A stretch of 64,000 nucleotides of DNA from a virus. The notes below the pieces were generated by a model. It made no database searches, was not told the DNA's origin, and saw only the letters and a list, made by a program, of their open reading frames with translations. This document shows positions 27,418 through 60,991 of the stretch, piece after piece (position 1 is the first letter of the stretch; each line of letters starts with the position of its first letter). Both the position numbers and the translations under genes were made by a program. The stretch lies in the IMG/VR virus record IMGVR_UViG_3300047311_000323, positions 32,001-96,000 of that record. One strand, written 5' to 3'.

Positions 27418-27445
27418 TTGACACGTAATTTTTAAGTTTTAGAGT
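27418..27445 (+). promoter_or_regulatory. Sigma70-type promoter for the CCA-adding enzyme gene
   Basis: Perfect TTGACA at 27418-27423, 16-bp spacer, TAGAGT at 27440-27445; predicted TSS falls at about ATG 27453. Confidence 0.6.
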
Positions 27446-27452
27446 GCCCAGC

Positions 27453-28676
27453 ATGGAACATCTACCTATTTCTACACACCTTATTCACCCACAAGCAATT
27501 GAGGTATGTCGAATCCTAAATCAAAACAACTATCAAGCCTTTATTGTGGGCGGATGTGTGCGAGACCTTCTCCTGGGGCAGACGCCCAAGGACTGGGACA
27601 TCACGACCGATGCTTCTCCTCAGAGAATCATGGAGATTTTCCCCAAGACTATTCCAACTGGCCTGCAACATGGTACGGTAACGGTCTGTATGGGCGAAGG
27701 TGTCGAAAACCACTTCGAGGTTACTACGTTCAGAATCGAAGGCGCATATTCAGACGGTCGTAGGCCCGATGAAGTCACTTTCGTAATGAATGTAGAGCAA
27801 GACTTGGCAAGGCGAGACTTAACCATCAATGCCATTGCTTATGACCCGCTTACCAATGTATGTGTAGACCCTTTTCACGGAATTGAAGACCTCCAACAAG
27901 GTCTAATTAGGGCAGTAGGTAATCCTGCTATCCGATTCCAAGAGGACGGCTTGCGCATCATGCGAGTGGCTCGATTTGCGGCTAGATTTGGCTACCAAGT
28001 AGAAGAAGAAACCATAAAGGGCATGTCAGAGAACCTAGAGACCTTGAAAAGGGTCTCAAAGGAGCGAATTCGAGATGAATTATGCAAGACTCTGATGGCT
28101 AGTAACCCAAATATAGGGTTGCGAATTCTATCTTCAACTGGGGCATTAAAAATAGCTGCTCCATCCTTGCGATTTCACCCTGAAGCTCGTGATTTCCCTT
28201 GGGCCGGTGAGTTAGAGACAAGAATAGCTGTTCTTTACCTTCATCGTCTCCAGGAAGTAGAGGCTGAACTAGAAAGTTTGAAATTCTCTAACCGAGAAAT
28301 CAAGAAAGTTTTACTGCTTCAGGAGCTGTTTGGACGCTGGTGGCGAGCGTCGCATTGGGGCGATTCCGAAGCCTATAAGGTGTTTATAAGCATCATCAAG
28401 AACCGATCCATAGACGACTACCCCTCTACCTTACAGCAATTTATAAGGTTGGGAGAGTCGCTTGGTTACCCCGTTCAAGAATGGCTTAATCTTTATCAAA
28501 ATGAAGTCGTTTTTGCTCGTAAAGAGATGCTGATAAATGGTAATGATTTGATGGAGGCCGGCATGCCTGCTGGTCCTAAATTGAAAATAGCTTTGGATAA
28601 GTGCTATAATGAAATTTTGCTTCATCCCGAGCATAATACCAAAGCTTACTTGCTAGAAGTAGCTAAGCGAGCTTAA
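27453..28676 (+). CDS. cca: Class II tRNA nucleotidyltransferase (CCA-adding enzyme)
   Basis: Motif A VGGCVRD..KDWD, C EVTTFR plus flexible loop EGAYSDGRRPD, B RRDLTINA, D EDGLR, E RVARF, C-terminal INGNDL...GPKLK. Start moved from GTG 27444 to ATG 27453. Confidence 0.93.
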   Translation: MEHLPISTHLIHPQAIEVCRILNQNNYQAFIVGGCVRDLLLGQTPKDWDITTDASPQRIMEIFPKTIPTGLQHGTVTVCMGEGVENHFEVTTFRIEGAYSDGRRPDEVTFVMNVEQDLARRDLTINAIAYDPLTNVCVDPFHGIEDLQQGLIRAVGNPAIRFQEDGLRIMRVARFAARFGYQVEEETIKGMSENLETLKRVSKERIRDELCKTLMASNPNIGLRILSSTGALKIAAPSLRFHPEARDFPWAGELETRIAVLYLHRLQEVEAELESLKFSNREIKKVLLLQELFGRWWRASHWGDSEAYKVFISIIKNRSIDDYPSTLQQFIRLGESLGYPVQEWLNLYQNEVVFARKEMLINGNDLMEAGMPAGPKLKIALDKCYNEILLHPEHNTKAYLLEVAKRA

Positions 28677-41172: not shown

Positions 41173-44100
41173 TTAGAACACACCCTTTTTATTACCAAAG
41201 AGGTTTGACAACTGGGTATAAGAGTCATCCTCGACTGCTTGAGCTGGAGAGAATTCTCCATCAACTCTGAGACCAACTTGTGGCATGCTTCCTGCAGACT
41301 TACGCAGCATACCTGGTTCATGACGGGCAACGACCTTCTTGAGGGATTCGAATGCGTCATCATTAAACTTCATAATCTGATCAACTTGATCTGAGATGGT
41401 TACTCTGTCATGCTTGCACAGACCACGGTCAACCATGTCATAGGTTAGTTCATAGGCACGAGCTAGCTTAATTCTGAAGGTGTTTAACTCTTCTTCCATA
41501 GCTGACTTGACATGTTCCTTCACCATTTCACTGGCAAATTCACTTCCGCCATCAACTTCACCGAAGTACTTCTTCCAGTAAGCAACAGCTTCCTTGTCCA
41601 ATCCGTAAGATGCTAGAGCATCAACGTCATTTGGATCAAGCTTGCCCTCAGAGACGAGTCTCTGAATGACTTCTGCTTCTTTGCGAACCTTTGGTGGTGC
41701 CTTAGCAACCTCCAACATTCTCTTGTTTACTTCTGGGAGGGTCTCAACCAATCCGAGGCTGTCGGATGGCTTTACTTCCAATTCAGTTTGTCCATCGGCT
41801 AGTCTGTCGGCCTGGTCTAGCATATCACTAAACTTTTGCTTGGACATGTCTTGGATTTCTCCGTCTTCTTCTTTACCGAGAGCGTCAGCAGCCAACTTGG
41901 CCCTGAGAGCTGCACGGCCTGCTCTATCATCAAATGATGCCATAGTTAACTTCTTTCCGGCCAACTCTGGTGGTACTTTCTCACCTTGTTCAAAAGTGAG
42001 ATCGTTGTCGTCAGCCAAACCTTCTAGTAGTGGTTCTGCATGTGGCTCTTCGTGTTCGTGTTCTTCACCGCCCACATCTCCATCTAGAAGACCTTCGAGT
42101 CCATCCAAACCACCCAAACCTTCGCCACCCAAATCGCTGTGGTCTTGGTCATCGCCCATCATTTCTTGGACGGCATCCAAATCTGCGTTGGTGTCGTTGA
42201 TTAAGCCCATTAAGTCGCCGCCATCTGCGGAGTGGTTATCCTTCATGCTCATAGCGTCTCCTTCGTCTGAGGCAAGTGATTCGAGTTCTGACTCAATCTC
42301 TGCACGCTTGACAATGGCTTTAGTACCACGAGCATACTTGACGAATGCGGTCATTAGCTTAAAGCCGTCTGCTACAGCAGTCTTGGCTTCGTTTAATGCA
42401 TCGTCTACAATATTGCCTACAAAATCTTGGTTAGAATCAGTTACAGCGCCCTTGTCGTACATTCCAACAATCATATCTAGTTCTTGCTGGTGTTCAGTTA
42501 GTTCTGCAATAGCTTCTTTCATTGCATGAGTTAGTGCGCCATTCAATTCTCTTCTTAGAGTATTGAGGGTTGCTGTGCTGAAGTTATCAGAAGCAGAGGA
42601 CTCCATGGAGTCTTTCTTCTTCTTTGCATCTTGGTCGTCAGCAGCCATTGGGCCACCGGCTGGACCGCCTACGCCACCTGCTGGAGGAGCGCTACCTGCT
42701 TCTGGACCGCCCATTTCAGCTTGTTCACCAGTTAAGGCACGAACAGCTTCTACTAGGTCAGAGCTTAGGTCTCTTACCTTTTCGGCAAGTTCAACTGCAC
42801 TCTGCTTTGGGTCACCAGACTTGCCTGCGTCTTCTGCTGGAGGACCAGCATCTGGACCGGCATCACCACCTGGAGGTGGGGCACTGGATGGGTCACCGGC
42901 TGGAGGGCCGGCTGGTGGAGCACCACCTGGAGCGCCTTGTGCTTTCTTAATTAGTTTGCTTACCGCATCAGCACCATTAACTTTGACCTTTTCGATCAAC
43001 TTGGCACCGAAGTCCTTGGTAGCAATTGAGTCATATAGAACGTCAGTGTTTCCACCGGATAGTTCTGCAACAGATGCAGTCAACAATAGCTTGTCACCTA
43101 GGAATACTTCCCAAGCGCTTCTGCCCTTGTTCTGGGTGCCGTTGCTGTTGGCAGCCTTGACGAATCTGGCTCTTAGTTGAGCGCGTGCTAGCATCTGCTT
43201 ACGCTTCAATTCATCCTTTGGATCAGCGGAGGATGGAGAAGGGTGCATGCCGTCTACTGGACCAACACCTGGGAATGGTGGTTGACCAACCATGTGCTTG
43301 TCTTCGTATTCACGTAGTTCTTCGTTAAGCTTATCTTTTGGATACTTAACTTTACCTGGGGTTGGCTCGTTTACGCCGCCACCACCTAGGTAATAGGCTT
43401 CTTTGCTTCTCAAAGCGTCTTTTGCCATATTGACAATGGAGTTACGCTTGAGGGTGCGCTCTTCTGCTTCTGCACGAGCGAGCATCTTCTTACGCTCTAA
43501 CTCGCCAGATGGGTCAGCCGAAGCTGGAGAAGGGTGCATACCATCGACTGGACCTACCTCAGGGAAAGGAGGCTGACCCGTCATGTGCTTGTCTTCGTGT
43601 TCACGAAGTTGCTCATTGAGTCCGTCTTTTGGATATTTAACTTGGCCTGGAGTTGGCTCATTAACGCCACCGCCACCCTGGAAATAAGCTTGCTTATTGA
43701 TTTCTTTTGATCCGGACATGTGTTCCTCTTGTATTTTGGTAGTAGAAGTTTTTGCTAACTTATCCAAGCTCTTCTTCATTTGACTTAACGTAGCTTCAAT
43801 TGATGCAGTAACTTGCTGAAGCTCAGCCAATGATTCCGCCTCTACATCTGCGGATGCAAGCCTAATGGCTTGCGGAGTTTGGAGAGCCAATCCAGAATCC
43901 GGGGTTGTGCCAGTATCCATGGCTTGCGAACCCGACGATTGATTATATGTTGAAGAATTAGTATCTTTTCCAGAATTTTTTACGTTCTTGAATTCTTGCA
44001 CCTTACGAAAGGCTTCATCTAATTCTGTCTTGAAACTATCAATGTCACTTGCTTCGACGTTGAATTGAGCGCTTCCGCCGCCTTCTTCGCCATTTGGATC

Positions 44101-44931
44101 TGACACGTTTACATTAGCACTAAACTTGAGATCGGCCATTTTTTCTAGTTCTTTGGCACGATTCTCTAGATAAGTATTCATTGTATTTGCTGCAGCAATG
44201 ATGTGTTTGATGTTGGCTCTAGGATCCGCACCATTTACAACGATAGATAGCTCAATTGGATTGAGGTCTACGTTGATTTCACCGTAGCAAGTCTTGTTCT
44301 TCATATGACTGCAGAAGTCAGCTTCAGCGCGAGCGACTCGACCGCAATCATAACAGATGGCTCTTCCAACAGCAGTGCCCATAGATACGCAGTTAGAAAC
44401 GCCGGTTGAAATTTGTCTAGCTAATTGAGGGAATCCAGCCTTATCTAAGGCGCACAACGCAATCACTCTCTTGAGGCTGCGATCGTAATAGGTATCAACG
44501 ATAAAACCTCTAACATGGTCAACCGAACTCGATTTATGATCCACGCATAGAGGCTTGTGTTTCCACTTCTTGTAAGCTTTGGTTAATTCTGCTTCTGGAA
44601 AAATATCTCCATTGGAATTCTTATATGGCTTAATGTTAGGGTCATTTGATGCCCATTTCCATGTACCACCACTAGTATCCCAGCCTACTTCGACTGGTTC
44701 GCCCTTGAGCGTTAGCTTTGGTGTGCCATCTTCGTTAAGCGCTGCGGCCTCGGCGGCATGCATCATAACGGCAGAGAAATATAGGAAGTCTTCAGCTTTA
44801 GGTGCAATCTTCTTTAGGTTAGTTGCGAACTTCCTAAAGTTCTCCAATACCTCAGCACTCACCTCAGGAAGACATGATTCCATGTTCTCTAGTTTAATTT
44901 CGTGGGCTTCGCCTAATTTAATAATGGGCAT
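41173..44931 (-). CDS. Prohead (capsid maturation) protease fused to a long scaffold/core region, 1252 aa
   Basis: NGDIFP..EL...PLCVDH (His), VSMG (Ser), CYDCG...FCSH Zn motif, ELSIV; followed by coiled-coil, Pro-rich and acidic segments. Confidence 0.75.
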   Translation of the reverse strand: MPIIKLGEAHEIKLENMESCLPEVSAEVLENFRKFATNLKKIAPKAEDFLYFSAVMMHAAEAAALNEDGTPKLTLKGEPVEVGWDTSGGTWKWASNDPNIKPYKNSNGDIFPEAELTKAYKKWKHKPLCVDHKSSSVDHVRGFIVDTYYDRSLKRVIALCALDKAGFPQLARQISTGVSNCVSMGTAVGRAICYDCGRVARAEADFCSHMKNKTCYGEINVDLNPIELSIVVNGADPRANIKHIIAAANTMNTYLENRAKELEKMADLKFSANVNVSDPNGEEGGGSAQFNVEASDIDSFKTELDEAFRKVQEFKNVKNSGKDTNSSTYNQSSGSQAMDTGTTPDSGLALQTPQAIRLASADVEAESLAELQQVTASIEATLSQMKKSLDKLAKTSTTKIQEEHMSGSKEINKQAYFQGGGGVNEPTPGQVKYPKDGLNEQLREHEDKHMTGQPPFPEVGPVDGMHPSPASADPSGELERKKMLARAEAEERTLKRNSIVNMAKDALRSKEAYYLGGGGVNEPTPGKVKYPKDKLNEELREYEDKHMVGQPPFPGVGPVDGMHPSPSSADPKDELKRKQMLARAQLRARFVKAANSNGTQNKGRSAWEVFLGDKLLLTASVAELSGGNTDVLYDSIATKDFGAKLIEKVKVNGADAVSKLIKKAQGAPGGAPPAGPPAGDPSSAPPPGGDAGPDAGPPAEDAGKSGDPKQSAVELAEKVRDLSSDLVEAVRALTGEQAEMGGPEAGSAPPAGGVGGPAGGPMAADDQDAKKKKDSMESSASDNFSTATLNTLRRELNGALTHAMKEAIAELTEHQQELDMIVGMYDKGAVTDSNQDFVGNIVDDALNEAKTAVADGFKLMTAFVKYARGTKAIVKRAEIESELESLASDEGDAMSMKDNHSADGGDLMGLINDTNADLDAVQEMMGDDQDHSDLGGEGLGGLDGLEGLLDGDVGGEEHEHEEPHAEPLLEGLADDNDLTFEQGEKVPPELAGKKLTMASFDDRAGRAALRAKLAADALGKEEDGEIQDMSKQKFSDMLDQADRLADGQTELEVKPSDSLGLVETLPEVNKRMLEVAKAPPKVRKEAEVIQRLVSEGKLDPNDVDALASYGLDKEAVAYWKKYFGEVDGGSEFASEMVKEHVKSAMEEELNTFRIKLARAYELTYDMVDRGLCKHDRVTISDQVDQIMKFNDDAFESLKKVVARHEPGMLRKSAGSMPQVGLRVDGEFSPAQAVEDDSYTQLSNLFGNKKGVF
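43180..43700 (-). repeat. Two ~97-aa repeats (291-bp offset) inside the protease-scaffold gene
   Basis: KQAYFQGGGGVNEPTPG...KKMLARA and KEAYYLGGGGVNEPTPG...KQMLARA; gttggctc at 43652 and 43361. Confidence 0.9.
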
Positions 44932-45848: not shown

Positions 45849-46619
45849 TCAATGACCTACCTCTGAGAAGAAACCATCCATACGTTCCACTGGTCCGAAA
45901 CCTCGCTGCCCAGCATCATTGTCATATTCTCCCACATTAGGGATTGTGACACTCTCACTAGGATCATGCCTAAATAGTGGTGGGCTATCATAATTTTCGC
46001 GAGTGGGGTATTGATCCAAATCTGATGGGTACAATGAATCTACTGGGTCCTGCTTAGTCTGGTTCAAGTGTGGAGAGAACGATCCTTGATGTCCTTCATC
46101 CAAGAAAGTGTCACGGTTATCACCAATATACTCTCGTTCATTGGAGACTATATCAGCACTATTAGTATCTTTATCGGGCTTGCAGTGACGGATAATCTGT
46201 TCGAACATATGCATGCTCTGAGGCGGGATACCAACACCAAAGCCTAATGCCTTAGCTTCTTGAATTGCTTTCTCTGGGTCTTTACCAAGAAATCTACACT
46301 CTACTATTGCAGAAGCTAATCCAGTTCTATCCTTACCTTCATGGCAATGAACAAATGTGGGGCCACCTTCTAGAAATAGCTTTTTCATATCCTGAGATAA
46401 AAAATCATACAAGCTTTTTCTAGTATGATCGATATACAGTTTGATATGATTGATTCCTAACATCTTACAAGCTCGATCAATCTTCTCGCCTGTTTCTTGA
46501 TCTAAAGATACAATCTTTTTAATACCCAACTTATCTTTAAGCTCAAGTACATCTTTTGGAGTAGGGCCAGAACCACGATACAATACATCAGGAATAACTG
46601 AACGGAATCTTCTAATCAT
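45849..46619 (-). CDS. Dual-specificity/tyrosine phosphatase (CX5R family) with an acidic C-terminal extension
   Basis: LYRGSGP...GIKKIVSL...VHCHEGKDRTG active-site loop. Confidence 0.9.
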   Translation of the reverse strand: MIRRFRSVIPDVLYRGSGPTPKDVLELKDKLGIKKIVSLDQETGEKIDRACKMLGINHIKLYIDHTRKSLYDFLSQDMKKLFLEGGPTFVHCHEGKDRTGLASAIVECRFLGKDPEKAIQEAKALGFGVGIPPQSMHMFEQIIRHCKPDKDTNSADIVSNEREYIGDNRDTFLDEGHQGSFSPHLNQTKQDPVDSLYPSDLDQYPTRENYDSPPLFRHDPSESVTIPNVGEYDNDAGQRGFGPVERMDGFFSEVGH

Positions 46620-52224: not shown

Positions 52225-54108
52225 TTAGAACCTTCTCGGTACATAACCGCTCATTACCATGGGTTTATTCAGGTTTTTAGGGGTATGAAGCATTGGATTG
52301 TTATTTGTGAAGCCTCGACTAACTAAGAATTTAAAAGCCAAATAAGCGTTCAGCAGTGCCATAAATCCGTCGTTTGGTGTTCCGCCCTTGACATAATGGA
52401 CTGTGTGGTCACCATATTTAGAAATAGATGGCTTGAGTTCCATACTACAACAATGGTCAATTAACCATGCAACCTTCTCATAATCTCCATATGGGAATCT
52501 AATCAGACCTTTCTTCATTTGGTCATAAAGCTCACTAATATAGAAGTCTCTCTCGAAGATAATTTCTTTTGGAAAAGCCTCATGATTAAACTTAACATGA
52601 TCATTAACTCTGTTATGAGCACGAGAGACTAGATATCTATCTCCATAAGTGTTATGTAGTGTAGAAGAAAAGTCATTAGAGTAACCAATGTCTCCAATGG
52701 TTAGCTGCACACTATACTGTCTCATCAATTGATCAATGAGCCCCTTTTTGCTTTCCGGATCATTTCGTTTAAACTTAGTAGCAAATTCAATTGACAGTAA
52801 GTTAGATCCTTTGGTTTGCAAAATAACAGCGGTACTATAAGATTGGCCAGCAGGTTTTACTCTTTCTGGGTCAGCTAATTGTTCTAGGTCAGAACGGGCA
52901 CCATAATCGATTCCCATTACCGTCAACTGCTGCATTGGTCCTTTGGTTGGAAGAATACGTGGGCTATATTTTCTTTCGAAGTCAGCACATAGAGTACGTA
53001 CCTCGTCTGGAGACATCGGACTTGCATCTCCCTGATAGAACTCTCCAAGAACTTCGTTTTGGAAAACACGCTCAGTATTGATTGGATGACGGCCCGGCTT
53101 TTCCTTATCGATATCTTCTCTAGTGAATTTGGGCATGTAAAGCTGATTGATATGGAAACCAATCATATCACAGTCTGGATCGTTTGGATTCTTCAGAGCA
53201 ACCCACTTGCCACGTTCTTGTGCTTGTAGTTTATCTTGTTCATGGCCGCATTTTGAACACTTAACTACTTTACCATGAATCCAAACTTTCTCCCAATCAT
53301 CAGAACCTGGCGTGTAAAGTGGGAAATGCTCTTCACATTTCTCACAGCCTAAGTAGTAATATTGCTGAGAAGAAGACTGCCACATCTTGTGGTAGTCAGA
53401 TCCTTTACGACGGGGCGTTCCAAAGAAAACTTGTACTCCCTGTGTAGGTCTGCCATATTTGGCGTTGGTTAGAATTTTAAGAGCGTTTCCAATAGCCTGA
53501 GTCGTTGTCTTCTGAACTTCGTCAAAGAATAGAATATCAGCGGTACGACCCATGATTCTGTCGGCGTCTACGCCAGTCGACTCTACCCACAAGTGGTTTC
53601 CGCCAATGAACTGTTTAAAATGCAAAGAATCGTTGGTAGGAGAAGACTGGTCTAGTAATTGCTGCATGAAAGACTTTGGACGAGAGCCCTTGTTTTCGGG
53701 AGTTCCTTCAGGGACCTTAGCCATATTGATCATTTGGTTTAGCTTGGTCTTAGAATAGGCCGCAGCTAACTCCAATTGAGGGAAAGCGTGGATGATACGG
53801 ATTGGTGGACGGAACCCGTCTCCGAACAAACCAGAGCCCATGAAATACATTTCCAAAGCACTAGCCATGGTAGTAGCTCCTACCTGACGGCCTTTGACTA
53901 AGATAACTGGCTTAGCATCTGGCTCTAATGCTTTAATACCAATGTATCTGTAAATATCTGAGAAGGGCTTATATCCATTACCACTCAATCTGAATGGTTC
54001 ACCTTCTAATGTTAAATTCTCTTGACAAAATGTTACGGGGTCAATCATTGAGAGTTGTCTTTTCATCTTCTCAAAGATTTCCTTATTTTCAATATTTATA
54101 CTGGGCAT
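52225..54108 (-). CDS. terL: Terminase large subunit (GpA-like, with Zn-finger)
   Basis: Walker A KGRQVGATT, Walker B ILFFDEVQ, coupling GTP, CEKC/CSKC, nuclease MGIDYG and terminal NDGFMA. Confidence 0.92.
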   Translation of the reverse strand: MPSINIENKEIFEKMKRQLSMIDPVTFCQENLTLEGEPFRLSGNGYKPFSDIYRYIGIKALEPDAKPVILVKGRQVGATTMASALEMYFMGSGLFGDGFRPPIRIIHAFPQLELAAAYSKTKLNQMINMAKVPEGTPENKGSRPKSFMQQLLDQSSPTNDSLHFKQFIGGNHLWVESTGVDADRIMGRTADILFFDEVQKTTTQAIGNALKILTNAKYGRPTQGVQVFFGTPRRKGSDYHKMWQSSSQQYYYLGCEKCEEHFPLYTPGSDDWEKVWIHGKVVKCSKCGHEQDKLQAQERGKWVALKNPNDPDCDMIGFHINQLYMPKFTREDIDKEKPGRHPINTERVFQNEVLGEFYQGDASPMSPDEVRTLCADFERKYSPRILPTKGPMQQLTVMGIDYGARSDLEQLADPERVKPAGQSYSTAVILQTKGSNLLSIEFATKFKRNDPESKKGLIDQLMRQYSVQLTIGDIGYSNDFSSTLHNTYGDRYLVSRAHNRVNDHVKFNHEAFPKEIIFERDFYISELYDQMKKGLIRFPYGDYEKVAWLIDHCCSMELKPSISKYGDHTVHYVKGGTPNDGFMALLNAYLAFKFLVSRGFTNNNPMLHTPKNLNKPMVMSGYVPRRF

Positions 54109-54134: not shown

Positions 54135-54701
54135 ATGGCTTCCACGAAAAAACGAAGAAAAAGAGTATGCCTCAAATGTGGCGTTTCATTAACCACTAAG
54201 AATTGGGCTACTTACGACCAAAACAAGGGCTATTATATCTGCAAGCCATGTCGAAAATCCAATGACAAGAAGTCTCATCAGACCGATCCTGATTACTCTA
54301 AAAAACAAAACAGCCGCTATCGTATGAAACGAAGCGCTGTTATTTGGGCTTATGGTAATGCTTGCTGTATTTGCGGAGAAGATGAGTATACTAAACTAAC
54401 AATCAATGGTGATATCAACTATCTGTATGAAGGTCTTGTCCAAAAAACTGGATATCAAGTTACATGTTACAATTGTTATAAGGGTAAACCTTACAAAAGT
54501 AAATATGTCGAGTCATACAGGAAGAAAATAGTCAAGTACTATGGTGGTTGCTGTAAAGAGTGTGGTGAAAGAAAGGTTGAAACACTAACTCTCAACAAAA
54601 ATAAAGAACTGCTATGCTACAATTGCAAGTATAGCAAGATTGCGCTTGAGAAATACCCTCCAGAACCCGAAAAACAGGCTGGGCAAGTGCAAAGCACTTA
54701 A
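54135..54701 (+). CDS. Cys-rich protein with two degenerate HNH-like repeats
   Basis: YGxxCxxCGE...LT...CYNC twice; the DH dipeptide expected after LT(I/L) is absent from both. Confidence 0.6.
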   Translation: MASTKKRRKRVCLKCGVSLTTKNWATYDQNKGYYICKPCRKSNDKKSHQTDPDYSKKQNSRYRMKRSAVIWAYGNACCICGEDEYTKLTINGDINYLYEGLVQKTGYQVTCYNCYKGKPYKSKYVESYRKKIVKYYGGCCKECGERKVETLTLNKNKELLCYNCKYSKIALEKYPPEPEKQAGQVQST

Positions 54702-56489: not shown

Positions 56490-57563
56490 TTAGATATTCC
56501 ACTTATCCTCATAGATATCGGTACCAATATCAGAAGTTCCAGTAAATGGCTCTTCTACTTGCTCGGTTTGGTCAGCATCGTGACCTTCTGGATCTACGCC
56601 ATCTGGCAAGCCAAATAAACCGTCTTCAGATGGGGTTAGGTACTTATTAAAAAGTTTTTGCAGGATATCCTCGTGAAGACCTCTAGCTGGCTTTGTCTCT
56701 TCGTCATAATCTCTACCGAAATTAAGGGCATCAGCCGAACGACCATCAAAATCGTTTTCTGGTAAATAAGAGTGCTCACCAGCAATCTGTCCAGATTGGA
56801 ATGAACTCTGGAAAAGCTCAGGTCCTATATCTCCTGGGAAAAGAGAATAGTCATCATTGCCTGCAGGACCTAACGGACCCACTAGTCTTGGCTTATGATA
56901 CTGCTCTTCACCAGGATAAATCATTTGGTTATAGTGGTTTACCTGTTCATCAATCGGGAAGTCAATATGATTGACATCCTTTTTCTTCTTCTTTTTTGGA
57001 CCAGGGGTGCCTTGATATGGACTGTTTTTCCAATCATAGATACTGGTGCCATGCTCTTTAGGCGGAAGCATATGATCGGCATTGTCATCGGCAAAGAAAG
57101 CGCCTGGACCGTGATCTTCCTCTTCCCTGAACTCTTCAACACTGTCAACTTTGCCATCGCTCATTTCTTGATAGAGACCTTTTCCTAAATCATAATTAGG
57201 GCCTGCGGTCTTGATTATTCTTTCAAAAATAGCTGCACGGGCTTTAATGCCAGGATTTTCTTTAGTACGTTTGCCAGAATCCAATTGCCAAGAATCGTCG
57301 GCTTCATAGCGACCCTTCATCCTACTACGCCTTGCTTCTAGAAATTCCTGGACGCTATCGTAATTTTGTAGACCGTGGTATCCCGTGCCGGGGCCGATGT
57401 CCTCCATGCCGGGAATTGTATACAAATCGTAGTTGTAATAAAATGGTTCTTCAAAACGTGGCTGAACAACCAAGGCCGGATCGGACTTGTATTTCTTTTC
57501 ACCAGGCGTTGGTTCGTTGACCCCGCCTCCACCTTGGAAATAACCTTTCTTATTGACTGACAT
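56490..57563 (-). CDS. Acidic Pro/Gly-rich head protein carrying the YFQGGGGVNEPTPG peptide
   Basis: Likely start MSVNKKG at 57563 (AAGGA upstream); the peptide is shared with the protease-scaffold repeats. Confidence 0.65.
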   Translation of the reverse strand: MSVNKKGYFQGGGGVNEPTPGEKKYKSDPALVVQPRFEEPFYYNYDLYTIPGMEDIGPGTGYHGLQNYDSVQEFLEARRSRMKGRYEADDSWQLDSGKRTKENPGIKARAAIFERIIKTAGPNYDLGKGLYQEMSDGKVDSVEEFREEEDHGPGAFFADDNADHMLPPKEHGTSIYDWKNSPYQGTPGPKKKKKKDVNHIDFPIDEQVNHYNQMIYPGEEQYHKPRLVGPLGPAGNDDYSLFPGDIGPELFQSSFQSGQIAGEHSYLPENDFDGRSADALNFGRDYDEETKPARGLHEDILQKLFNKYLTPSEDGLFGLPDGVDPEGHDADQTEQVEEPFTGTSDIGTDIYEDKWNI

Positions 57564-58323
57564 TGGATTTTCCTTTAACATGCTTCATGTAGTATGGATA
57601 TACCTTTTCTGTAATTGGTATCTGAGTCCATAGATTCATCTGAGTAATTAGTTGAGCTGCCTTCTCTGGATTCCTAGTGAAAGCTTCATTTAGCTTATCG
57701 TTCATTGATTTCTCAGTTGAAATCTTAACAGTTTCAGGATACTTTCTTACATACTCAATAATTGAATCATCCAAGTCAAAATCCAATTTACAAGCAAGAT
57801 AAATTGCCCTTACAACTCTATTCCTATTAGAAGTGAGAGTTACCTCAGGCGCTAAACAAGTTCTAATCTTCTTCTCTTTGATATCTTTGAATCCTCGTTT
57901 AGTTGGATCCAAAGTTTGCTTTAGGTCTAACGTCAGCAACAAAGAGTTACAGGTAAAATCACGACTGAACATTTCGCGCTGCATGTTGGTAGGATTTCTG
58001 ATTCCTAACTTCGCTAGCTCTTGGTCAATGTTTTCGACCATAAAATTAGAAGAGAAGTCTACCTTCAAAGTACCTACGAAGATAGAGCTGTGTCCATCTT
58101 CCATAGTTTTTCTGGTGACGTTATACTTCTTACGAAACTCAATGAAAAACTCTTGAGACAAATAGTCAACGGTCTTATCACCAGTAGTAACATCTATGTC
58201 GGCGATGTTTTCTAGTTTACCCATGTACTTATCTCTAGGCGTACCTCCGCAGATATAGGGCGGAGATGCGCCTATCTGTTCTTGCACTCTCTTCATTTCT
58301 GAAAGCAGTTCGCGGAGTTTCAT
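57550..58323 (-). CDS. Divergent class II (CCA/poly(A) polymerase-type) nucleotidyltransferase
   Basis: Motif A CGGTPRD...DID and motif B SRDFTCNSL are intact; motif D EDxxR is replaced by SNRNR; no C-terminal tail domain; AAGGAG SD. Confidence 0.8.
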   Translation of the reverse strand: MKLRELLSEMKRVQEQIGASPPYICGGTPRDKYMGKLENIADIDVTTGDKTVDYLSQEFFIEFRKKYNVTRKTMEDGHSSIFVGTLKVDFSSNFMVENIDQELAKLGIRNPTNMQREMFSRDFTCNSLLLTLDLKQTLDPTKRGFKDIKEKKIRTCLAPEVTLTSNRNRVVRAIYLACKLDFDLDDSIIEYVRKYPETVKISTEKSMNDKLNEAFTRNPEKAAQLITQMNLWTQIPITEKVYPYYMKHVKGKSNVSQ

Positions 58324-58331
58324 TTATCTCC

Positions 58332-60233
58332 TTAAACGGCTGGTGGTCTTGGAGCTGCCGGAGCTGGAGGTGCTGCTGGTGGAGGAACGGCTGGAGGAGC
58401 TGGAGGGGCTAGTTCACCCATTTCTACTGCTGGAGTTTCTTTGGCTTCTTCCTTGCCGGCGTTCTCCATTTCGGTAGCTTCTTGCTCTTTCCTCATTTGT
58501 TTACGAGCCTTCTCTTTATCTTGGTCACTCTGTAGTTTGCCCTTGATACCGGCAACATCTTCTCTTTCAGGAGATGGTGCGATTGGAGCCTTCTCTGCGC
58601 TGGCCATAGCTCCACGCAACTTAGCAAGGATATCATCTACACGAGTAGAGATATAGTTGTTAGCTTCGAGAGCTTTGTTTTGGGCTTCAGATAGTGAAGG
58701 GAATAGCGAAGCTAATCCAAGACTATCTAACATCATATCAACAATGCCTAATTGTCTTGGCATTTCTCTAGTCTTGTAAGACTTGGAAATATCTTCTAGC
58801 TTAGCTACAACATCAGAGATGGCAACGTTTTTGAAAGCGCTGTCTATTTGGCTATCGAAGTTCGATGCGGTTGGAGAAGGTTCACCTGCGCCAGCATCTG
58901 GGATATCATCTTCCGTTACTTCTAACGGCTCTTCGGTAGCTGGAGCTTCTGGCTTTTCAGCGGCAGGAGGAATAAAAGCTGGAGGGTTTCTCTCTGGCTT
59001 AGGACTGTCGGTAGTTGGAACATCTTCCAATGCAGCAGGAGGAATATTAGCGCCTGGTGGTGGAGCGATTTGAGCTTCTGTTACCATTAACTCATCTTCG
59101 GCATCTAGCACTTCTAGTTCGTCATCTTCCGCGCCCGTGACATCACCATCCGTCTTATTTCCATCGTTCATGTTATCGATGAATTCTTTAATGCCTTTTG
59201 GCTGAGGAGGATCGTTCTGGTCCCCGCCTACTGGGGTCTGTACGCTAGGAACGCCTGGTGGTTGAGCTGGCAATCCACCTGGGGCTCCAGGGTTACCAGC
59301 ACCAGATGGGTCGTCTGGTGGGGTTGCAGGAGGCACAGCACCGCCTTGTTGCTTGCCATCATCTTTAGCAGCTTCACCGCCTGCACCAGGGGTTTGTGCT
59401 AGAGCATATAGAACTTCAGCAGCTTTGACGAATCCACTGCGCTTAAGGACATTACCCTCACGCACAATCATGTCTTCGTACAAACGTGTAGACACGCTTA
59501 GCTTGTTGACAAGCTGAACCTTCTTCTTGAGGCTATAGATAGCCTCCATCAGATTTTCTAACTCACCACCAGCAAATTCTTGACCGTCCTGAGAACGAAG
59601 TAATTTTTCAGCAGAGTCCAAACGTCCAATAATCTTGGAACGTTGCTTCTCAATGATTTGCCTTTTCTCTTCATTACGCTCAGCATCTTGGCTAGCTTTT
59701 TCAACAGAGTCGCCATCTGTGCGAGGTTCTGGTTCTTTTTGAGCATCTGGCTTGACATGCAAGAAGTAACCAGGCTGTCCATTTTCATACCAGACTTGTG
59801 CAAACTTATATTTCATGTGAGTTCCTTCTTCGTGGAATCTTAGCCAATTCAAGAAGTCATAGATTTCCATTTTCACCCAACCACTAGTGGCAAGCTTAAT
59901 TGCCTCTCGATATGGGAACCCAGCCTTTTGTTTGTAGTGAATGTCCTTAAGTGCATACATCCACTTTCTCATGTCATGCTGACCAGCAATGTGCTGATAC
60001 TGGTCGTAGTTGGGGTAAGCCTTCTTGTCAGTTACATAAGAGTAAAACTTAGGAACAAACTTACTATAGTCAATGCCATGGTGATCAAAAAACTCCATGA
60101 GCTTTTTCATCTTCTCTTCCATCTCTGGAGTGAGCGCTAGCTCTTCATCAGAATATGGTTGAACGACCTTCTCCAACTGCTTTTTGGATGGCATGTCGAT
60201 AATGGGTTTGTTTGAAGGCTTGTTCTCTGGCAT
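58332..60233 (-). CDS. Putative head/core protein with Pro-rich linkers
   Basis: KKAY, YKFAQ and VKAA motifs; helical domains separated by low-complexity spacers. Confidence 0.6.
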   Translation of the reverse strand: MPENKPSNKPIIDMPSKKQLEKVVQPYSDEELALTPEMEEKMKKLMEFFDHHGIDYSKFVPKFYSYVTDKKAYPNYDQYQHIAGQHDMRKWMYALKDIHYKQKAGFPYREAIKLATSGWVKMEIYDFLNWLRFHEEGTHMKYKFAQVWYENGQPGYFLHVKPDAQKEPEPRTDGDSVEKASQDAERNEEKRQIIEKQRSKIIGRLDSAEKLLRSQDGQEFAGGELENLMEAIYSLKKKVQLVNKLSVSTRLYEDMIVREGNVLKRSGFVKAAEVLYALAQTPGAGGEAAKDDGKQQGGAVPPATPPDDPSGAGNPGAPGGLPAQPPGVPSVQTPVGGDQNDPPQPKGIKEFIDNMNDGNKTDGDVTGAEDDELEVLDAEDELMVTEAQIAPPPGANIPPAALEDVPTTDSPKPERNPPAFIPPAAEKPEAPATEEPLEVTEDDIPDAGAGEPSPTASNFDSQIDSAFKNVAISDVVAKLEDISKSYKTREMPRQLGIVDMMLDSLGLASLFPSLSEAQNKALEANNYISTRVDDILAKLRGAMASAEKAPIAPSPEREDVAGIKGKLQSDQDKEKARKQMRKEQEATEMENAGKEEAKETPAVEMGELAPPAPPAVPPPAAPPAPAAPRPPAV

Positions 60234-60991
60234 TACTGGTTATTCAACTTTTTGTTAATGGTTTCGTTGAGTATTTTGGCTTCAGCAAGCTTCATGTCAG
60301 TATTGAGCGGCTGCTCTTGAGTTGGCATCTTTAGCTTGGCCATCTTCTCTTGGAAAATCTCCATAAATAACATGGAGCTTTCTAGGTCCAATTGGGACAA
60401 AACATCTCGGATTACATCATGAAATACCGAAATATGCTGATCTACCGCCTGCAAAGTCACGTTGTGTTGAATGACTAAGTCAGCGGGATTCTCAGTAAAT
60501 TTGTAATACTTCTCCAATAAGCCGCCAAGAAGCTCGCCGTATTCAATTAGAACACGATCTATCTTGGTATTGATATTACGTGGGTCTTCTTGAATTTCAT
60601 CAAAAACCTGACCCAAACGTGTTTCAATAGCCAGACATAACTGAGCTACCATTTGGCGCACATCTATTTCTTTGCCAGCTAATTCCAACATTTTACTCTT
60701 GTAAGTTGGATTACTCTTTACGGCCAATTCTAATTGGTCCGCTGTACCGGCAGCTACAGCTTGCTTGGTATTTATCATGTCCTCACGGATCATGGAATAT
60801 ACATCAAGATAGTTATCTTTGAATACTTTAATTGACTTTTCAGCCACTACAAATTTAGCTTCACTGACATTAGTATATTTACCAGCAAGCCATTCATGAA
60901 TGTCTTTTGCAGGATAATCTAATACTAACTTCGCAATGATTTCATCTTTATCTGGGTGGTCCAGAATCTTTTTAAGTGCGTTTTTGTTCAT
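60233..60991 (-). CDS. Hypothetical protein; candidate terminase small subunit or HTH protein
   Basis: HPDKDEIIAKL...DIHEWL is HTH-like, followed by coiled coil; own promoter motif at 61007-61020. The functional guess is weak. Confidence 0.35.
   Translation of the reverse strand: MNKNALKKILDHPDKDEIIAKLVLDYPAKDIHEWLAGKYTNVSEAKFVVAEKSIKVFKDNYLDVYSMIREDMINTKQAVAAGTADQLELAVKSNPTYKSKMLELAGKEIDVRQMVAQLCLAIETRLGQVFDEIQEDPRNINTKIDRVLIEYGELLGGLLEKYYKFTENPADLVIQHNVTLQAVDQHISVFHDVIRDVLSQLDLESSMLFMEIFQEKMAKLKMPTQEQPLNTDMKLAEAKILNETINKKLNNQ

Follow-up and report, generated by a model that had tools for sequence, protein, structure and literature searches.

Why would a bacteriophage that encodes a complete CCA-adding enzyme also carry, beside its packaging and head genes, a second and much shorter enzyme of the same superfamily? 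The question is raised by a 64,000-nucleotide stretch of viral DNA (the window, bases 32001-96000 of the 198-kb IMG/VR record IMGVR_UViG_3300047311_000323), in which a minimal class II nucleotidyltransferase of 257 residues (hereafter the NTase) is encoded on the minus strand at 57550..58323. The received view of class II nucleotidyltransferases is that they act on tRNA or RNA and depend on a ruler at the C-terminus and on a template of Asp and Arg. The original prediction for this locus had described the NTase as a second, non-canonical class II enzyme with a re-specified choice of nucleoside triphosphate (NTP), located among head genes and possibly packaged. The analysis presented here examines its motifs and fold, its conservation, its genomic setting and the proteins to which its relatives are fused. 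Our tentative reading is that the NTase is an active RNA 3'-end enzyme coupled to head assembly and possibly packaged.

A minimal enzyme with head and neck domains

Pfam family PF01743 (PolyA_pol head) matches residues 23-154 of the NTase (E 1.7e-12, 48.2 bits against a cut-off of 23), and its PHROG matches, phrog_2244 and phrog_24229, are both annotated as 'tRNA nucleotidyltransferase'. An AlphaFold2 (AF2) model built on 79 homologues reached a pLDDT of 96.4 and a pTM of 0.91, and the top Foldseek matches of this model are class II A-adding and CCA-adding enzymes (E 1e-11 to 4e-8). The structural match is confined to the first ~240 residues of these 350-425-residue proteins (TMq 0.65-0.69, TMt 0.42-0.49), and profile alignments to solved chains stop near their residue 230-267. 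The NTase thus possesses the catalytic head and the NTP-binding neck, without body and tail, in line with the absence of a tRNA-measuring tail that had been noted for this 257-residue protein.

The catalytic residues are intact. Motif A, GGTPRD (residues 26-31), and the catalytic D42-I-D44 are encoded at 58192..58248, on the minus strand like the other motifs, and G26, G27, R30, D42 and D44 are invariant in a 79-sequence alignment and conserved in 111 of 112 family representatives. These representatives come from a wider family of 192 clusters, mostly of 240-260 residues, retrieved at E <= 1e-10 among 1.8 billion cluster representatives, and all family-wide residue counts given below were made on 112 of the 192. 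The third catalytic carboxylate, D89 (58057..58059), is invariant in the 79-sequence alignment and is Asp in 110 of the 112, while the ribose-sensing xRD of motif B is S120-R121-D122 (57958..57966), with R121 present in 112/112 and D122 in 111/112. At the position of motif D, SNRNR (residues 165-169; 57817..57831) replaces EDxxR with the Arg alone retained, and at that of motif E, YL (residues 175-176; 57796..57801) replaces RF. Profile alignment to solved class II enzymes sets TSNRNR opposite LEDPLR and RAIYL opposite RGIRF. The earlier account of these motifs, with DxD and xRD intact and the two others altered, is therefore accurate residue by residue.

Scores against curated models place the NTase outside the named enzyme groups. 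It falls below the cut-offs of the CCA equivalogs (52.7 against 290 for NF009814 and 48.7 against 438.8 for TIGR02692) and of the PcnB models (30.1 against 305.65 for TIGR01942 and 21.3 against 702 for NF008634). The C-terminal RNA-binding region of poly(A) polymerase (PAP), PF12627, was not detected in the Pfam search, and PADLOC models, including those for MenT/AbiEii, gave no match at E <= 0.01. By fold and catalytic motifs, the NTase belongs to the class II nucleotidyltransferase superfamily; it is without the features that define CCA-, CC- and A-adding enzymes and PcnB, namely the EDxxR template, the body and tail, and the equivalog scores. Motifs and equivalog scores thus agree on a second, non-canonical class II enzyme.

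Conservation across a family of short phage enzymes

A homologue search returned 688 sequences at E <= 1e-3, the best 120 of which are all at least 69% identical to the NTase and about 257 residues long. When the query and these 120 closest homologues were aligned, the motif D position read (S/T/A)N(R/K)NR and the motif E position YL in 121/121, with N166, R169, Y175 and L176 invariant, which establishes the conservation of the motif changes described in the original prediction. Among the 112 more divergent representatives, the near-invariant positions are G26, G27, R30, D42, D44, D89, R121, D122, D139, D147, R169 and R172. R169 itself is kept in 109. The other template positions are less constrained: the Glu-equivalent is never predominantly Glu, and the Asp-equivalent varies (D 59, N 29, S 10, Q 5, others). 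From these counts, the change from Asp to Asn marks the sub-clade of the query together with about a quarter of the clusters, and YL (Y in 73 and L in 66 of the 112) is characteristic of the short family at large rather than of one clade.

The gene is under strong purifying selection, with a dN/dS of 0.05-0.08 against seven relatives. Given this ratio, the invariant motif residues and the 688 homologues, the motif changes are not a product of chance. The alignments point to a broad family of short phage NTases in which the chemistry and the templating Arg are preserved and the remaining template positions are relaxed.

The NTase in a conserved packaging and head block

The large terminase (TerL; 627 residues, 52225..54108, minus strand; phrog_675 E 6e-61, PF05876) lies 3.4 kb downstream of the NTase and is followed by the portal gene and then by a prohead protease-scaffold-like open reading frame (ORF). 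A total of 19 viral loci, with NTase identities as low as 61%, preserve the order g60233, g58332, NTase, g56490, g55336, g54698, one opposite-strand gene and TerL, so that synteny beside packaging and head genes is well established. The adjacency of g60233, g58332 and the NTase persists at 33-36% identity, and for a member with 31% identity, TerL and portal follow six genes downstream. In its rate of evolution, the NTase is close to TerL and far slower than the genes on either side; in locus L006, it is 85% identical to the query, against 42% for g56490. The naming of its neighbours as head genes goes back to the original prediction; both flanking genes are without a known family, so that 'head gene' is for them a putative label.

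The immediate upstream neighbour, g58332 (58332..60233, minus strand), encodes an acidic, Pro/Ala-rich protein of 633 residues that belongs to no known family and precedes the NTase in 19/19 viral loci, as it also does at 33-36% NTase identity. Its stop codon TAA (58334..58332) is separated from the NTase ATG (58323) by an 8-nt gap holding the GGAG of an AAGGAG Shine-Dalgarno sequence, which overlaps that stop (58324..58333, minus strand). Downstream, the NTase overlaps g56490 (56490..57581, minus strand) by 32 nt when counted from the first ATG of the latter (57581) and by 14 nt when counted from the ATG at 57563. The spacing described earlier, 8 nt upstream and an overlap downstream, can thus be read directly in the DNA.

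Split and fused forms of the NTase and its partner

The partner protein g56490 is acidic (isoelectric point 4.7) and mostly disordered (AF2 pLDDT 50.7), and its model offers no domain to search with. Its true start is likely the ATG at 57563, preceded by AAAGGA (57576..57571), because its homologues from split loci begin MSxNKK[A/G]YFQGGGG. Thirteen split loci share a common design, in which an AAAGG-type Shine-Dalgarno sequence is followed by a start codon and the NTase stop is embedded in the leader AAT-AAG, about 10 nt before the Tyr codon.

In other relatives, the two are one protein. A search with the first 135 residues of g56490 showed that 19 of the best 120 homologue clusters contain PF01743 on the same polypeptide of 470-610 residues, some of them on contigs of 460-480 kb. 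The junction reads K-x-A/G followed by Y[FY][QL]GGGGVNEPTPG in 18/18 readable cases; that of the 19th cluster, P0365, was not read. Sequencing or assembly error was considered as a source of these fusions and rejected, since the sequence of one of them, P0121, is the same on five contigs from three sources (ENA, JGI and Logan) and since 19 clusters are fused. The arrangement in the window is accordingly that of a gene split three codons before the junction, whose second half has its own Shine-Dalgarno sequence and ATG and is translationally coupled to the first. A programmed frameshift between the NTase and g56490 was rejected as well: the g56490 frame is closed by a TGA one codon before its first ATG, no fitting slippery site was found, and the 13 split loci conserve Shine-Dalgarno sequence, start and embedded stop. 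The lack of a frameshift site and this conserved design indicate ordinary translational coupling. Split translation yields nearly the same two products as cleavage of the fused form at its junction would.

The peptide that follows K-K-G in g56490, YFQGGGGVNEPTPG (57501..57542, minus strand), is the junction peptide of the fused forms. It is found three times in the 198-kb record, once in g56490 and twice in the protease-scaffold-like ORF (41173..44931, minus strand; copies at about 43645..43686 and 43354..43395), the N-terminal part of which matches phrog_18299, head maturation protease (E 2.5e-12). The recurrence of the peptide suggests K-x-A/G|Y as a candidate maturation cleavage site.

Fusion is not restricted to g56490-like proteins attached at this junction. 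About 40 of 150 representative NTase clusters carry C-terminal extensions, and at least 14 of the extended clusters share the g56490 motif N-[FY]-D-[YL] ... K-S-[VI]-x-[DE]-[FW], followed by a basic run. Within g56490, residues 50-82 and 129-158 are two copies of NYD[LY]...G..Y....[KD]SV.EF, which also occurs after the NTase in many fused relatives. In the distant members P0201 and P0218, the NTase is fused to Peptidase_M15 and a phage tail lysozyme, in P0124 to a PcfJ-like domain plus a g56490-like region, and in P0233 to the HAD domain of 'Swiss Army Knife RNA repair proteins'. These fusions lend comparative support to the suggestion that the NTase is packaged, both through a partner that shares a peptide with the protease-scaffold ORF and through the cell-wall hydrolases of distant members; on the other side stands the NTase of the window, which is unfused. 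A predicted complex of the NTase with g56490 residues 7-140 scored 0.18 against a mark of 0.32, which is not evidence either way.

A second protein with a possible role at RNA ends is encoded in the same block. Between the protease-scaffold ORF and the portal gene lies a 256-residue phosphatase (45849-46619, minus strand) that matches PTP-SAK, the 'Swiss Army Knife' DSP-PTPase family (27.3 bits against a cut-off of 27), and Y_phosphatase3. It is located ~11 kb from the NTase in 4/4 relatives checked, at 56-92% identity, and the two may form an RNA-end pair.

Template change and nucleotide choice

Published mutagenesis of the template motif points both ways. In E. coli PAP, the E211A and D212A enzymes still add more than 90% A, and R215A alone scrambles base choice (PMC2532741). 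By contrast, when the three template positions of the human CCA enzyme were varied in a library, with Asn and Ser among the residues offered at each, functional clones were changed at Glu only, and neither Asp nor Arg was ever replaced (PMC11784652). With R169 retained, the earlier description of the NTP choice as re-specified is weakened. An A- or C-like preference exerted through R169 seems at least as plausible as a switch to U/G or to homopolymer tails, and full preservation of canonical CCA or A repair seems unlikely. The NTP choice is probably set mainly by the retained Arg, and hence A- or C-like, yet unlike that of a canonical CCA enzyme.

The canonical enzyme and the tRNAs of the phage

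The canonical CCA-adding enzyme that the original prediction had recognized in this phage is full-length and encoded on the plus strand at 27444..28676. It scores 308.4 bits against the NF009814 cut-off of 290, and its motifs GGCVRD, DWD, RRD, EDGLR and RF are all intact. The record further holds 12 tRNA genes (G000:C1:144833-198396, outside the window), and 11/12 end in a genomically encoded CCA, so that the canonical enzyme would serve repair rather than maturation. Two relatives, G001 and G003, carry both enzymes. A third, G002, a complete genome of 446,541 bp (rated 100% complete and holding locus L016), has a short NTase of 259 residues and is without the canonical enzyme, which makes the short NTase the core gene and the canonical one an accessory. 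A division of labour in which the NTase and the phage's own CCA enzyme form a split CC/A pair was rejected, since the latter is a full CCA equivalog by score and G002 keeps the short NTase without it.

A proposed role and its rivals

How, then, might such an enzyme work? In the reading proposed at the outset, the NTase would be produced late, alongside head proteins, and function as a unit with g56490. Through this partner, it would be associated with the capsid and possibly loaded into it. Its substrate would be RNA, to the 3'-OH of which it would transfer ribonucleotides, a reading favoured by the conserved xRD, by the RNA-repair HAD domain of P0233 and by the PTP-SAK phosphatase of the head block; with no body and tail to act as a ruler, it would do so without measuring tRNA shape. 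Its time of action could be the injection into the next host or a late stage of infection. Packaging is the weakest step of this scheme for the phage of the window, in which the NTase is a free protein without an obvious targeting peptide. A more speculative extension, which we consider rather doubtful, is that the NTase and the PTP-SAK phosphatase of the head block are loaded via the partner and injected with the DNA, as a kit to heal, re-extend or alter host or phage RNA 3' ends at the onset of infection, with an NTP template unseen in cellular class II enzymes. In a bolder variant, the NTase may nucleotidylylate the N-terminal Tyr exposed on the three capsid peptides.

Several points weigh against an RNA 3'-end enzyme coupled to the head. 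The NTase of the window is a separate protein with no recognizable targeting peptide, and if g56490 is the carrier, splitting the gene could abolish loading. This partner, acidic and disordered, is not an obvious RNA-binding substitute for the body and tail. The case for cleavage at K-x-A/G consists of the recurrence of the motif in g56490, the fusions and the protease-scaffold ORF. In the functional selection of the human CCA enzyme, D-to-N was never recovered (PMC11784652), and since Asp is irreplaceable there, canonical A or CCA addition by the NTase may be impaired and its activity weak or different. The flanking genes g58332, g56490, g55336, g54698 and g60233 matched no family in Pfam, PHROG or PADLOC. 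Finally, the NTase family was not found in any cultured phage, as tblastn searches with the NTase and with a more central member, P0200, against 50,697 phage records gave no full-length match.

The absence of a targeting peptide from the free NTase favours a cytoplasmic, unpackaged enzyme that would repair or tail RNA or tRNA 3' ends late in infection, with an activity of the A-adding, CC-adding or short poly(A) type; its location among head genes would then reflect no more than co-transcription and an old fusion. Such an enzyme would make sense of the retained templating Arg and full set of catalytic residues, of the A specificity that E. coli PAP keeps despite E211A or D212A (PMC2532741), of the at least 12 tRNAs of the phage and of a relative, G002, with the short NTase alone. 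It would nevertheless have to work without the body and tail by which every class II tRNA enzyme anchors the tRNA elbow (PMC3925840) and without the template Asp, indispensable in the human enzyme selection (PMC11784652), and it leaves aside both the position in the packaging and head block, fixed across deep divergence, and the fact that fusion to a capsid-linked protein and to cell-wall hydrolases has recurred. We judge it unlikely, if far from negligible. The tight and ancient coupling or fusion to a protein that starts with Tyr invites another thought, namely that the acceptor is not RNA: a head-assembly enzyme could nucleotidylylate a protein hydroxyl, such as that of the Tyr exposed where g56490 and the two scaffold peptides begin with YFQGGGG, or else the packaged DNA at its 3' ends. 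The split forms do keep a short leader that would need to be cleaved to expose this Tyr, and the NTase lies close to the terminase, but its 3'-end-handling head domain and ribose-sensing xRD are conserved as in RNA enzymes. We know, moreover, of no class II enzyme that modifies proteins, and a non-RNA acceptor strikes us as improbable.

A host-directed toxin has also been envisaged. The original prediction had suggested a MenT-like blocking of tRNA ends; as a toxin, the NTase would add extra nucleotides to the CCA ends of host tRNAs, or tails to other host RNAs, and so stop host translation. The missing tRNA ruler could permit addition beyond CCA, and Gp22 of Klebsiella phage fHe-Kpn01, which is short and tRNA-NTase-like, is toxic when expressed in bacteria (PMC7291057); Gp22 is not a demonstrated homologue of the NTase family, however, the PADLOC search revealed no sequence relation to MenT/AbiE-type toxins, and translation poisoned by a late gene product would be to the detriment of the phage itself, unless that product were sequestered. 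A toxin thus appears quite improbable. As for a catalytically dead protein that retains the fold for a structural or scaffolding role, the loss of EDxxR and RF and the location among structural genes would suit it, whereas metal-binding and ribose/phosphate-contacting residues are near-invariant in 112 divergent clusters, in which surface and template positions vary, and the dN/dS is as low as 0.05; we give this explanation very little credence. We therefore retain, as a tentative reading, an enzyme that is active on RNA 3' ends and coupled to head assembly, and the NTase may represent an undescribed type of RNA-end enzyme that is associated with virions.

Neighbouring genes and the phage

The deeply conserved g60233-g58332-NTase block opens with g60233 (60233-60991, minus strand), which encodes a protein of 252 residues without a family match. 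Its nearest named cluster in the ESM Atlas is Terminase_5 (score 0.89, a lead only), and it could be the small terminase. The sole opposite-strand gene between the head block and TerL (54135-54701, plus strand) encodes a Cys-rich protein of 188 residues with many CxxC pairs; it is variable, with a weak match or none in several related loci (L009-L015, L017, L020 and L021). In a relative with a fused NTase, TerL (L022:9372-11702) has 776 residues and matches the 627-residue protein in two pieces about 150 residues apart, which suggests an insertion after about residue 77, perhaps an intein or a homing-endonuclease-like element. A major capsid protein was not identified among the 20 neighbouring ORFs, and a promoter and terminator scan of 52-64 kb gave nothing above shuffled expectation.

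The record itself is 45% complete according to CheckV. Its relatives are found on contigs of 447-496 kb, which makes this a huge phage, and the clade is one of uncultivated phages of roughly 450-500 kb. Among the 50,697 phage records (isolates), the best match to its TerL is only 27% identical. Outside the window, at G000:C1:146813-146887 and 148232-148305, lie two tRNAs with a CUA anticodon (amber suppressors, labelled 'Pyl' by ARAGORN), and TAG is the stop codon in just 5 of 173 long ORFs of the 198-kb record. TAG may thus be read through or recoded in part of the genome; the ORFs of the window are intact under code 11.

Comparison with known systems

The closest structural counterparts of the NTase are the class II tRNA enzymes, with which it shares the head and neck fold: the CCA-adding enzymes of G. 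stearothermophilus (1miv), T. maritima (3h37) and P. halocryophilus (6qy6), the A-adding enzyme of A. aeolicus (4wby/1vfg) and CC-adding enzymes. Also common to both are GGxxRD and DxD, the third carboxylate, the xRD, the D..G..D of motif C and the Arg of motif D. In class II tRNA enzymes, however, body and tail hold the acceptor and T-arm (PMC3925840), whereas the NTase has no such anchor for the tRNA elbow, has Ser and Asn for the Glu and Asp of EDxxR and YL for RF, and shows no recognizable flexible-loop sequence. Its family further differs from them in its location within a phage head block and in its frequent fusion to a capsid-linked protein that is disordered. With PcnB, the NTase has the catalytic core in common, and the choice of base by Arg alone in PAP (PMC2532741) fits its Arg-only template; it differs in having no C-terminal RNA-binding region and in its TIGR01942 score, far under the cut-off as given above. 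The family is thus a large and strongly conserved one that has dropped both the ruler and the Asp/Arg template yet keeps the chemistry. Engineered U,G-adding variants were reportedly described by Cho et al. in 2007, and if the NTP choice of the NTase does differ, it would be a natural counterpart of such template variants.

Cultured phages also encode short 'tRNA nucleotidyltransferases' with the same superfamily annotation (phrog_24229; Acinetobacter Friunavirus; Klebsiella fHe-Kpn01 Gp22). They resemble the NTase only weakly, at profile level (E 8e-9), and none does so over the full length. Their genes presumably lie in DNA-metabolism regions, and to our knowledge no fusion to capsid-linked proteins has been reported for them. 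Surveys of jumbo and huge phages mention canonical CCA enzymes only (PMC7824862, PMC7162821). Toxins of the MenT/AbiEii type could conceivably share a mode of action with the NTase, namely template-independent addition to RNA 3' ends without the ruler of CCA enzymes; they nevertheless belong to another family (DUF1814), and the NTase is not part of a toxin-antitoxin pair.

A last comparison is with enzymes delivered by the capsid, such as T4 Alt, the internal proteins, the N4 virion RNA polymerase and the polyvalent proteins (Iyer et al. 2017, PMC5512222). The genes of such enzymes lie with those of structural proteins, and the products are frequently cut by the prohead protease and enter the host along with the DNA. 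The NTase family is likewise wired into the head and packaging block and repeatedly fused to capsid-linked or cell-wall-degrading modules, and in P0201 and P0218 the joining of lysozyme and peptidase domains to a cytoplasm-acting enzyme is a trait reminiscent of polyvalent proteins. Unlike the capsid-delivered enzymes, the NTase of the window is a single-domain protein and merely a candidate for packaging, and in the survey of polyvalent proteins, Pol-beta nucleotidyltransferases occur in proteins of conjugative elements only (PMC5512222). At 257 residues, the NTase is small and readily testable. Should it prove to be packaged, an RNA-end-modifying activity would join the short list of enzymes that phages inject into their hosts.

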